Shown in pieces: positions 24,723-62,801 of a DNA stretch of 64,000 nucleotides. Each line of letters begins with the position of its first letter. The first letter of the stretch is position 1. The notes under the pieces are model-generated. The model was not told where the DNA came from. It was given only the letters and a program-made list of their open reading frames with translations, and made no database searches. The stretch comes from a virus. Lineage: Duplodnaviria; Caudoviricetes. The DNA lies in IMG/VR virus record IMGVR_UViG_3300032285_003957, positions 32,001 to 96,000 of that record. One strand, given 5' to 3'. The translations under genes were made by a program, and so were the position numbers.

Positions 24723-25119
24723 TGGTGGAGATGACGAGACTCGAACTCGTGTCTTTCCTGCTCAACAATAAATGACTACACGTTTATTACAACATTGTTT
24801 CTCAATGTTCCGAAATATCAGGTTTGATATATGTGAGAACCCTACCTGCAAACAACTTGGTCTTAGAATTATTTTAAACGAGCTCTAACCTGTCACCCGT
24901 ATATTGGACTTCTGTTCCTAGGTTAATGTCCTAATCGACCCGTGCATAGGAGGCTAACTTAGTTAGGCTGCTACTTTAGAAGTTGCAAGAATACCTGCAA
25001 TTTCCATGTTGTTGTAAACGTTGCCGTTTGAATTTTTCCACCGTAGATTTAAGTCATAGATGAAGTCTGACTACGTGCCATCTATCCCTGATACCTGAAA
25101 TCAATTCCAAAGCATCCCC
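24723..25119 (-). ncRNA. ssrA: tmRNA; tag GNVYNNMEIAGILATSKVAA* at 25025-24963
   Basis: 5' GGGGATG pairs with 3' CATCTCC-ACCA with G3-U; GTTCGAGTC T-loop; internal tag ending AA-stop; 397 nt. Confidence 0.95.
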
Positions 25120-26999: not shown

Positions 27000-27807
27000 A
27001 AAACACTGAGAATACATGTCTTAACGAAACTCTTTAAAAGGATTATTTGATTCCCTTCGTTTCCACTAACTTTTGATTAGTAAGTTTCAGTCACGGCCAA
27101 TTAGATTAACCAATCCTTTCGCAATATCCTACTCTTTTAATACTCATTACTCATCAAATCTGCCGACCTGATTCAACCTTGCGGGTTTAGAGAACTTTCT
27201 CAAAAATCATATTGGGCTTGAGACCCTTTATGGCTGCGAACCCCTCGCAACTAAGTAGTGACCTATCGGACACTGCGGACGAACACTTTTTCTTGTTATA
27301 ATTTTAGTTGTTAAACCGCTATTAACAAAATTTAGTTTCCGAATTTGGGAAAGTAGTGGTTCGTCACCTAGCCAAGCCACCTTTTGAGCGACTCGATACT
27401 AAACTACTCTCTGTAACATCCCTGCTACCATATTTTTGGACTCCTTCAAAACTAAACCCTTGGTAGAGTTTAATAAAGGATGATAACAGCACCACCTGTT
27501 TTTCACCATACCTTTCGGTTTTAAGATTCCCATTATATTGAATCACGCAATGATATAGTCGGATAACTATACTTCTTACAATAACTCTATGGATTATTCT
27601 TATTGATGTTCCCATCTCAACCGAACAACTCGGATTGCTCGGTCATCAAACCACTTTCGCTACAGTGTTACCCTCACTACTTAAGGTTCAATGATATTCC
27701 ACTTGCCTACTCGAGCTCCATTACTGAAGCCGCAACTTACCCCAACCAAGGGTTTGTCACTTTATCCCACTTTCGTGGTTTATTTTAATCGACCATAGGC
27801 GGCCAAT
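27000..27807 (-). ncRNA. approximately 800-nt structured ncRNA, probably GOLLD-like
   Basis: no credible ORF, GC-enriched, many hairpins with GNRA loops, own promoter and terminator, next to a tRNA array; 3' hairpin GACA-UGUAUUCUCAG-UGUU resembles my recollection of the GOLLD 3' end. Confidence 0.6.
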
Positions 27808-28653: not shown

Positions 28654-28825
28654 CTGTGGTAGCAGGAGTCGAACCATGCAGGTGGAGATTCGATTAGTAA
28701 CAAAGCGCTTGCAAGCCGGTGGTCTACCCCGATATTACTAATCTATTTCTTTGTCCACGCCCGGGAGACAACCGGGTGCGTTTGCCGAGGCCATAACAGA
28801 GACAGCCAATTTTCGCCATACCACA
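28654..28825 (-). ncRNA. 172-nt tRNA-like RNA with expanded D-loop and very large variable region
   Basis: TGTGGTA/TACCACA acceptor, GCG/CGC D-stem, CCCGG/CCGGG stem, GGTTCGACTCC T-arm. Confidence 0.7.
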
Positions 28826-28886
28826 ATATAAGGACCCAGTACCTCTTATGCTTTCACTCACCTGAGTCCAACGTGAGATAAGGTTG

Positions 28887-29337: not shown

Positions 29338-29416
29338 ATAATCTCAGGCATTCTACTTCCCGCAGCACGAAATTGTATCTTACTTAGCCCACCGTTAGCG
29401 GTATGGGAACCTGAGT

Positions 29417-31230: not shown

Positions 31231-31338
31231 TTAAATAAGTGTGTCCGAACTTAAAGCGCATGTAGGTTGCACAAGATAGCCATTACCATTTGTTAACGGT
31301 CTACTCGTAATCCCCAATATGTTATTTAAGTTCTTCAT
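31231..31338 (-). CDS. leader peptide B, 35 aa: MKNLNNILGITSRPLTNGNGYLVQPTCALSSDTLI
   Basis: manually translated; lies between promoter box and terminator; codons match array B tRNAs. Confidence 0.8.
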   Translation of the reverse strand: MKNLNNILGITSRPLTNGNGYLVQPTCALSSDTLI

Positions 31339-33330: not shown

Positions 33331-33462
33331 TGGGTTAGGAGTGGGAATCGAACCCATAACGATGCGTAATCTTCTACTTCAACTCCTTGTACTTCAGAGT
33401 CCGTCACCGCGTCCCGTATGTAGCCTCCATACGGTGCATCTTCCATTTCTGCTACCTACCCA
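33331..33462 (-). ncRNA. 132-nt tRNA-like RNA with long variable region
   Basis: TGGGTAGG/CCTAACCCA ends, GCA/TGC D-stem, CCGTATG/CATACGG stem, GGGTTCGATTCCC T-arm. Confidence 0.65.
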
Positions 33463-33467
33463 AATTT

Positions 33468-33610
33468 GCAATCAAGATAGGATTTGAACCTATAAGCCGT
33501 TTTCGTGTTCTTCCATTCCACTCAACGACATACCTATGTGATCCTGCGGGAAGAAATCGTCCATCTTGCGATGCCTACATAGGTGTGTATCACACTACAC
33601 TTCTTGATTG
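33468..33610 (-). ncRNA. 143-nt tRNA-like RNA with expanded anticodon arm
   Basis: CAATCAAGA/TCTTGATTG ends, ATAGG-TTCAAAT-CCTAT T-arm, ACCTATGT/ACATAGGT stem. Confidence 0.65.
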
Positions 33611-34310: not shown

Positions 34311-34352
34311 AGAAATATTAATGATATACAAAAATATTTCAAATCTTTTTTG

Positions 34353-34420
34353 TTGCGGGGCCAGGAGTCGAACCTGGAACACTCGGCTTATGAGGCCGGT
34401 GGGAAACCATTCTCCCCGCA
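34353..34420 (-). tRNA. tRNA-Met(CAT) with reduced D-arm (68 nt)
   Basis: good acceptor, anticodon and T arms; D-arm only TGG-TTTC-CCA. Confidence 0.7.
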
Positions 34421-34425
34421 ATGTG

Positions 34426-34497
34426 GGTGTATGGACGGTATCGAACCGTCTTCCCGAGCTCCACAAACTCGTGCTTCACCTTAAAGCTTCAAACACC
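34426..34497 (-). tRNA. tRNA-His(GTG)
   Basis: loop TT-GTG-GA; G-1 opposite C73. Confidence 0.9.
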
Positions 34498-34564
34498 GTG
34501 TGTGGAATCGAACCACTTTCCCATCTCCACGACAGGCGATACGTCCATTATCCTTTACCGGGTG
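34494..34564 (-). pseudogene. degenerate tRNA-like remnant (His-GTG-like)
   Basis: intact GTGG-TTCGATT-CCAC T-arm but poor acceptor and anticodon stems. Confidence 0.35.
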
Positions 34565-62617: not shown

Positions 62618-62801
62618 GACCATTTCTTTTTTGTTGAATATACACCGCTTTTAGCTTTTGCGTTCTTTTCTTAACTGAAGGTTTTACAAATACTTGTCTC
62701 ATCCTTAATTCTTGAACTTGCTTAACTTTTTGAACTTTATTTTTATAAGTTCTTAACGCTGTTTCAATACTTCTTTCTTTAGATAAATCAACGATAATCA
62801 T
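62610..62801 (-). CDS. rpsU: ribosomal protein bS21
   Basis: SIETALRTYKNKV..ELRMRQVFVKPSVKKR matches the bS21 pattern. Confidence 0.85.
   Translation of the reverse strand: MIIVDLSKERSIETALRTYKNKVQKVKQVQELRMRQVFVKPSVKKRTQKLKAVYIQQKRNGLN

Follow-up and report, generated by a model that had tools for sequence, protein, structure and literature searches.

An apparently undescribed family of tRNA-like RNAs with aspartate and GatCAB marks in phages and Bacteroidota: possible aminoacyl carriers outside decoding

Five strong determinants mark a tRNA for aspartate (G73, G34, U35, C36 and C38), a U1-A72 pair confers amidation by GatCAB, which the G1-C72 pair of tRNA-Asp prevents, and A73 is crucial for LeuRS (PMC9976931). 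A single AspRS can be non-discriminating, as has been shown for Bdellovibrio (PMC4206432). Among other RNAs that resemble tRNAs, Y RNAs are characterised by an acceptor-like stem that is internal and closed and by a Ro60-binding motif, and are found within 4 kb of Ro60 (PMC4201824). Dimers formed through palindromes are known for the RNAs HYER1/5, OLE and ARRPOF (PMC12990946). Phages from freshwater that encode the ribosomal protein bS21 have genomes of 293-331 kb and are predicted to infect Bacteroidetes (PMC9723584).

The RNA gene described here is located in a window of 64,000 nucleotides (the whole stretch of DNA that was analysed), which is part of a 234-kb phage record with 33% G+C and a completeness of 70%. 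In the window, the minus strand has 25 tRNA genes; a GOLLD RNA, a tmRNA and a bS21 gene are present, too. Compared by gene content rather than by phylogeny, the record fits the bS21-encoding freshwater phage type. The gene codes for a tRNA-like RNA of 172 nt without an encoded CCA end (Table 1). A plus-strand reading was rejected, since both the array of tRNA genes and every motif lie on the minus strand. The 172-nt RNA is not called by ARAGORN with default settings and has no match in Rfam 15, and a promoter scan gave results at chance level only. When the single sequence is compared with its own shuffles, its fold energy is within chance (z = -0.82), and thus the case for the RNA rests on conservation.

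In the original prediction, which was made from the letters of this stretch, the gene had been described as a tRNA mimic. The acceptor, D stem, anticodon-like stem, bulged T arm and D-loop hairpin named there are all present, on the minus strand, which had been left unstated, and the anticodon-like loop indeed lacks a purine 37, having U37 instead. The nested variable domain also exists, with 80 nt rather than about 85, and does not start with a 5-bp helix: covariation gives a 4-bp helix, a 4-nt bulge and a 3-bp helix, which are followed by a purine-rich conserved internal loop, an 11-bp helix, a hairpin (H3) and a palindrome. The gene had been called the last RNA of its tRNA array (array B); it is the last tRNA-shaped gene, with GOLLD RNA and tmRNA further downstream on the same strand. 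While the tRNA-shaped body had been recognised, it had not been noticed that the RNA bears the aspartate identity marks and a U1-A72 pair and contains a palindrome.

Table 1 The tRNA-like RNA gene, its parts, and other features of the 64-kb window. Counts are given for 131 phage-side and 57 cellular copies.
Feature	Position	Strand	Remarks
tRNA-like RNA, whole gene	28654-28825	minus	130.6 bits with the family model; ordinary tRNAs below 60
Acceptor stem (7 bp), 5' strand (U1, G2, U3)	28819-28825	minus	U1-A72 in 130/131 and G2-C71 in 131/131 phage-side copies; 57/57 cellular copies
Acceptor stem, 3' strand (28655-28661), and discriminator G73 (28654)	28654-28661	minus	G73 in 131/131 phage-side and 57/57 cellular copies
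D arm as in tRNA-Leu (stem of 3 bp, Levitt pair A15-U48), inserted hairpin included	28778-28816	minus	A15-U48 in 131/131 phage-side copies
Optional D-loop hairpin (6 bp, 7-nt loop)	28789-28807	minus	Insert in 87/131 phage-side and 0/57 cellular copies
Anticodon arm (5-bp stem; 7-nt loop 28765-28771; GUC 28767-28769, U37, C38)	28760-28776	minus	GUC in 131/131, pyrimidine 37 in 129/131 phage-side copies
Variable domain, 80 nt	28680-28759	minus	Two terminal elements at the tip
Hairpin H3, small, conserved	28718-28730	minus	126/131 phage-side and about 21/57 cellular copies
Perfect 10-nt palindrome, predicted dimerisation site	28707-28716	minus	Palindrome in 122/126 H3-bearing copies
T arm, bulged U between positions 51 and 52	28662-28679	minus	Bulge in 33/131 phage-side and 5/57 cellular copies
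tmRNA	24723-25119	minus	Rfam 83.2 bits; missed by ARAGORN
GOLLD RNA, short form	27003-27411	minus	302.7 bits against RF02032; 1.2 kb downstream of the tRNA-like RNA
Spacer of 60 nt from tRNA-Ser to the tRNA-like RNA	28826-28885	minus	Homologue at the same place in L172; 4-nt spacer in most relatives
Structured RNA, conserved, about 78 nt, flanked by tRNA-Gly and tRNA-Gln	29338-29416	minus	Paired ends, invariant middle; about 20 matches in related loci; no Rfam match
Leader ORF of 35 codons before array B	31231-31338	minus	Five Asn codons, one Asp codon; followed by a hairpin
Second oversized tRNA-shaped RNA, 129 nt	33332-33460	minus	No canonical anticodon loop, long variable arm; conserved in related phages; no match to the 172-nt RNA family model
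Third oversized tRNA-shaped RNA, 141 nt	33465-33605	minus	Acceptor, T arm, branched middle; almost the same in L004, L009 and L018
tRNA with CAU anticodon, 69 nt, reduced D arm	34352-34420	minus	Rfam 35.7 bits; missed by ARAGORN with default settings
Element of about 66 nt between tRNA-Cys and tRNA-His	34497-34563	minus	T-arm-like hairpin at the end; conserved in at least five other loci
bS21 ribosomal protein gene	about 62640-62792	minus	Genome position 94640-94792

Some neighbouring features deserve a comment. The 60-nt spacer that precedes the gene may represent another small RNA. In related loci, the tag peptides of the tmRNA homologues end in AVA or VAA. If the leader ORF belongs to an attenuator, array B together with the 172-nt RNA would respond to a shortage of Asn-tRNA; its enrichment in Asn is weak when set against the 6.9% Asn in the long ORFs of the phage, and the counts of Asp and Asn codons are both indecisive.

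Phage-side loci were gathered via a neighbouring RNase H-like gene and by four DNA patterns, two of which do not include the anticodon. This resulted in 131 distinct full-length homologues from phage and metagenome contigs, which have 110-176 nt (108-212 nt for the family when cellular copies are included) and a mean identity of 72% (lowest 49%). For the 24 copies without a D-loop insert, 97.5% of the alignment cells are paired and 29 of 46 pairs have changed on both sides; none of 500 shuffles was as high, and slid controls were paired to 42-53%. Compensatory changes were found in every stem of the RNA family. With the covariance model, members score 80-164 bits and ordinary tRNAs less than 60 bits. 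That this is a functional tRNA-shaped RNA, the insertions being selected rather than decayed, had already been proposed, and the 131 phage-side and 57 cellular homologues with their covariation support this view. Only the D-loop hairpin must be taken out, which is not part of the core and is absent from 44 of the 131 phage-side copies and from all of the cellular ones. Of the checks that had been recommended along with the proposal, the covariance model was built from the conserved homologues and also found cellular copies, and Rfam gave no match for phage or cellular copies. The RNA represents a real and apparently undescribed family of tRNA-like RNAs, no description of which was found in the open literature.

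Homologues were not found by an exact 20-mer search, and cultured phage genomes contained no match to the RNA. A loose pattern that was applied to bacterial genomes yielded mostly chance matches, only 2 of 80 being real. The downstream RNase H-like gene (PF04308) was considered as a coupled partner, which was rejected: of 70 copies that were found without using this gene, 60 do not have it within 1.5 kb. A tRNA-Ser gene precedes the RNA in 47 of 88 loci and is thus commoner than the RNase H-like neighbour but not obligatory. In one clade (L030, L033, L034, L035, L037), a 176-aa ORF is located between the RNA and the RNase H-like gene; two HxT-like motifs suggest a phosphoesterase of the 2H type, as in 57B beside the tRNA cluster of T4.

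Canonical tRNA-Asp(GUC) has G73, G2-C71, G34-U35-C36 and C38 in common with the RNA, and the anticodon loops of the RNA and of phage tRNA-Asp differ mainly at position 37. The differences are a pyrimidine 37, a variable position 33, a class II core, a length of 150-170 nt, and U1-A72, which in the family has replaced the G1-C72 pair that is conserved in bacterial tRNA-Asp. On the phage side the marks for AspRS and GatCAB hardly vary (Table 1; C38 in 126 of 131 copies), and copies retrieved with patterns blind to the anticodon keep these marks as well. G10 is not conserved, being present in about half of the phage-side and in few of the cellular copies. A normal tRNA-Asp is encoded in the 64-kb window, too, and in 25 of 34 tRNA-rich loci, so the RNA does not replace it.

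Decoding needs U33 and a purine at position 37. In the phage-side copies, position 33 is U, C or A, and at position 37 there are 122 U, 7 C and 2 A, so that a purine occurs in 2 of 131 copies. Among 632 canonical phage tRNAs from the same loci there is one true pyrimidine 37. The T-stem bulge, which occurs in about a quarter of the phage-side copies, is situated where EF-Tu binds. The cloverleaf with its 7/5 acceptor-T branch and the bases of the D-T elbow are present as in canonical tRNA, but the combination of U33 and purine 37, a length of less than about 95 nt and a call by RF00005 or ARAGORN are not. Judged by this anatomy, the RNA appears unsuited for reading codons. There is no support for pairing between the anticodon and a GAC in H3: position 37 does not covary, and many copies without H3 keep GUC.

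The core of the RNA is of the tRNA-Leu type. Its A15-U48 pair is found in all of 61 phage tRNA-Leu, and almost all tRNA-Ser have G15-C48. Further features shared with class II tRNA-Leu (RF00005) are the 3-bp D stem and the one and two unpaired bases around the arm, and tRNA-Leu is the best T4 match to the family model (47 bits). In contrast to tRNA-Leu, the RNA has G73 (LeuRS needs A73), an aspartate anticodon, a giant arm, and a score below the RF00005 threshold. Membership in tRNA-Ser was rejected because the core with C72, C11-G24 and G15-C48 is missing.

A further reading is that the RNA decodes, inserting Ser (long arm and G73) or Asn at Asp codons in the manner of allo-tRNAs. tmRNA is an example of a large arm that can enter the ribosome. 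G73, G2-C71 and the long arm are determinants for serine (PMC9976931). Allo-tRNAs also have a long arm and G73, GUC is frequent among their anticodons, and some occur in phages, but they decode, and the RNA has a 7/5 fold rather than 8/4 or 9/3, no Sec-like D arm and an arm that is several times longer (PMC5389517). Missense decoding is very unlikely in view of the Leu-type core (A15-U48, two unpaired bases 3' of the arm), the failure to keep C72 and C11-G24, the loss of purine 37 and U33, and the bulged T stem in a quarter of the copies; moreover, it is implausible that a housekeeping-like chromosomal gene mistranslates Asp codons.

With a lowered threshold and introns allowed, ARAGORN reports a tRNA with a 90-nt intron, as would be expected for a precursor that is spliced to an ordinary tRNA-Asp. 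This call uses a different anticodon, though, and many spurious calls appear in the same run. Removal of the inserts leaves the pyrimidine 37 and the Leu-type core in place. There is no bulge-helix-bulge, neither a splicing endonuclease nor RtcB was found in the 70% complete genome, and for a self-splicing intron the arm is far too short and the length too variable (108-212 nt overall). We consider splicing hardly credible.

T4 codes for two oversized stable RNAs of unknown function which likewise end a phage tRNA cluster, the species 1 and 2 RNAs (rnaC with 139 nt, rnaD with 119 nt). Unlike the family, they have no cloverleaf with an aspartate anticodon, and homology is restricted to the T arm (16.8 bits, below all T4 tRNAs but one). 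The bacterial Y RNA YrlA resembles the RNA in being a tRNA mimic that occurs in some phages, but the RNA has no Ro60-binding motif, and its acceptor is formed by the free 5' and 3' ends and is not permuted (PMC4201824). The original prediction had also mentioned a Y-RNA-like adaptor. This idea was dropped, given the ordinary tRNA topology and a 70% complete genome in which no Ro60 (TROVE match) was found.

Two elements were added or are much more frequent on the phage side. The D-loop insert, found only there, is of several unrelated kinds, many of them palindromic, and the D-loop hairpin shows compensatory pairs across 20 variants. The palindrome next to H3 has at least 8 nt in 119 copies; palindromes were seen in 5% of shuffled segments and in none of 148 canonical variable arms. 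The palindromes are of 20 different kinds and have 7 different 4-mers at their centre. A tree that was built without the palindrome columns needs 16 switches, some of which may be deletions of repeat units rather than double substitutions. Even the two central bases switch (GC, CG, UA), and these cannot pair within one strand. Some of the 8-nt palindromes would leave a hairpin of only 2 bp. The predicted energy for the copy described here is -16.3 kcal/mol as self-duplex and -1.7 kcal/mol as hairpin, compared to -16 to -24 and -1 to -5 kcal/mol, respectively, in the family. A self-complementary element is thus conserved by covariation including its central bases, as would be expected of a palindrome-mediated RNA dimer, and the simplest reading of the palindrome points to pairing between two molecules. 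Such an element, predicted to pair two molecules, is also present in HYER1/5, OLE and ARRPOF, to which there is no relation in sequence or fold; in the present family, it forms the tip of the variable arm on a tRNA body (PMC12990946). As the palindrome is rare in cells (about 10 of 57 copies) and missing in 9 phage-side copies, the dimer is not a core feature.

With the covariance model, cellular copies were detected in an isolate of Runella, in 27 of 41 genomes from the Runella order and in 19 of 40 genomes from the order of a Chitinophaga genome. An independent pattern found the RNA in 47 of 80 genomes from the two orders and in 16 of 151 genomes across the phylum, all counts being from draft genomes that are not independent of each other. 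The 57 cellular sequences (108-212 nt) have covarying core stems, and U1-A72, G2-C71, G73, U35, C36, pyrimidine 37 and C38 are present in every one of them. Position 34 is G in 50 cases, the other anticodons being CUC (3), UUC (2) and AUC (2). Even copies of 108-123 nt retain the conserved internal loop at the arm's base. Tandem arrangements of up to four copies occur in several cellular genomes (L516/L521 in G139, L525 in G189, G177, L517/L522 in G043). In G139, both copies have a UUC (Glu) anticodon, which represents the other GatCAB substrate class. Head-to-head with the RNA, an AsnC-like gene is located upstream in 37 of 50 cellular loci and in none of the 131 phage-side loci; AsnC is the best NCBIfam match of this gene, at a score below the cut-off. 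Phage-side and cellular copies form the two sides of one branch (SH-aLRT 93; the tree is unrooted), which fits a single capture.

In the 80 genomes, GatB is present whenever the RNA is, and the RNA occurs in none of the 9 genomes without GatB. Genomes with GlnRS provide a sharper test because GatCAB is not needed there for glutamine. Among these 32 genomes, the RNA is found in 22 of 23 with GatB versus 0 of 9 without (Fisher p = 4e-7 with kinship ignored; both states occur in both orders), and in the lone exception, G199, the GatB-like match is weak and atypical. GatB is not sufficient for the RNA, however: in the phylum sample, 126 of 151 genomes have GatB and 16, again all with GatB, have the RNA.

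Other routes to asparagine were also surveyed. AsnA is encoded in 4 of the 80 genomes, two of which are RNA-positive. AsnB-like genes occur in 74 of 80, a count that may include other amidotransferases besides true synthetases, and 5 of the 6 genomes without them have the RNA. AsnRS is probably present in all 80 genomes. A first screen for it was negative in 26 genomes, and these absences were left unused since five that were checked have a third class IIb enzyme and one that was scanned passes the AsnRS cut-off. The Chitinophaga order includes many genomes with another type of AsnRS (L578-L582), which has about 506 aa and an insertion and escapes a strict TIGR00457 search.

In three genomes with RNA, GlnRS, AsnRS and GatB (G225, G075, G071), the only tRNA-Asn found has G1-C72, so that the RNA is left as the obvious substrate of GatCAB; in G075, neither AsnA nor AsnB was found. 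Most hosts have a tRNA-Asn with U1-A72 and, with an AspRS that is possibly non-discriminating, the known tRNA-Asn route could explain the retention of GatCAB there. Nine AspRS lack the His which we take to be the mark of a non-discriminating enzyme, which is a weak test.

The same observations bear on a scaffold function, in which the RNA would hold AspRS and GatCAB together or relax the specificity of AspRS so that ordinary tRNA-Asn is amidated. A scaffold tRNA-Asn holds the two enzymes together in the transamidosome of Thermus. The U1-A72 pair in the tRNA-Asn of most hosts suits such a role, as does the internal loop at the base of the arm, which resembles a protein-binding site. However, the RNA-positive genomes with G1-C72 in tRNA-Asn, GlnRS and GatB have no tRNA that could serve as substrate for the complex, and we consider a scaffold to be unlikely.

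A decoy or brake, which would bind, with no productive turnover, to AspRS, GatCAB or a defence nuclease that cuts tRNAs, is rather unlikely as well. It would tune the Asp/Asn pathway under AsnC in cells, and the dimer would act as a two-handed sponge in phages. Identity marks and gene links suit a competitor as well as a substrate, tandem copies (up to four) and phage dimers would raise the titration power, and the location in a phage tRNA array also fits. On the other hand, a nuclease decoy should copy the loop of real tRNA-Asp, from which the RNA differs at positions 33 and 37, and chromosomal copies that are lost together with GatB would stay unexplained. A ribosome ligand, which had been proposed in addition to a nuclease decoy, is possible, but neither of them accounts for the chromosomal copies beside an AsnC-like gene or for the link to GatB. 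Whether carrier, decoy or scaffold, all of these readings place the RNA away from the ribosome, as a partner of AspRS or GatCAB.

To the first of them we give an even chance: as an aminoacyl carrier, the RNA would take no part in decoding, Asp would be turned into Asn on it off the ribosome, and the phage copy would add to the asparagine supply. Tentatively, this can be extended to an ncRNA dedicated to carrying a biosynthetic step: AspRS would charge it, GatCAB would amidate its amino acid, it would never decode, and AsnC would have it as a target instead of a gene for asparagine synthetase. The phage version would be a self-dimerising auxiliary metabolic gene that consists of RNA only. The bS21-encoding freshwater phages would have taken the RNA from their Bacteroidota hosts. 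Transcribed at the end of the tRNA array, it would be matured by the RNase P of the host and by its CCA-adding enzyme, as acceptor and T arm are intact. Host AspRS would then charge it with Asp via G73, GUC and C38, and GatCAB would read U1-A72, to which the co-occurrence of the genes adds, and amidate Asp to Asn. The pyrimidine 37, the variable position 33, the frequent T-stem bulge and the 80-nt arm would exclude the RNA from decoding. The Asn might be released for AsnRS, which is speculative, and we know of no such release step. In cells, the RNA is probably controlled by the AsnC-like regulator and would occupy the place which asnA has in E. coli. The phage copy, which is without asnC, gained the covarying palindrome that would join two molecules tip to tip. 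The dimer might perhaps grip the dimeric AspRS-GatCAB complex more tightly, and both this and the benefit to the phage are speculative. In the phage genome (70% complete), no GatB, class II synthetase, AsnC or YqeY was found; without a GatB, synthetase or asnC of its own, the phage would use the host enzymes.

As a carrier, the RNA would work most like the tRNA-Asn of the indirect pathway, but it is not a tRNA-Asn (PMC4206432, PMC9976931). Both have U1-A72 and G73, the RNA is linked to GatCAB in genomes with AsnRS and GlnRS, and it is likewise a proposed source of asparagine where AsnA is absent. It differs in its aspartate anticodon, so that a discriminating AspRS would do, in its class II Leu-type body with an 80-nt arm that appears unfit to decode, and in being a separate gene beside an AsnC-like regulator. 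Evidence against a carrier comes from position 34, which varies in 7 of 57 cellular copies, from the unconserved G10, and from the replacement of G1-C72.

About half of the genomes that were sampled in two orders of Bacteroidota contain the family, as do more than 100 phage contigs, and standard tRNA and Rfam scans miss it. Unlike that of T4 rnaC and rnaD, its function is directly testable, as there are named enzymes, a regulator, and cultured hosts. The phage form is a candidate for a compact natural RNA dimer that is suited for structural work. There is a fair chance that the family has a new kind of function. If the RNA is indeed a carrier, this would explain why GatCAB is retained in many Bacteroidota that have both AsnRS and GlnRS. 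It would also represent a new use of the tRNA fold, as a metabolic carrier that was split off from decoding, and phages would have an auxiliary metabolic gene made of RNA alone.
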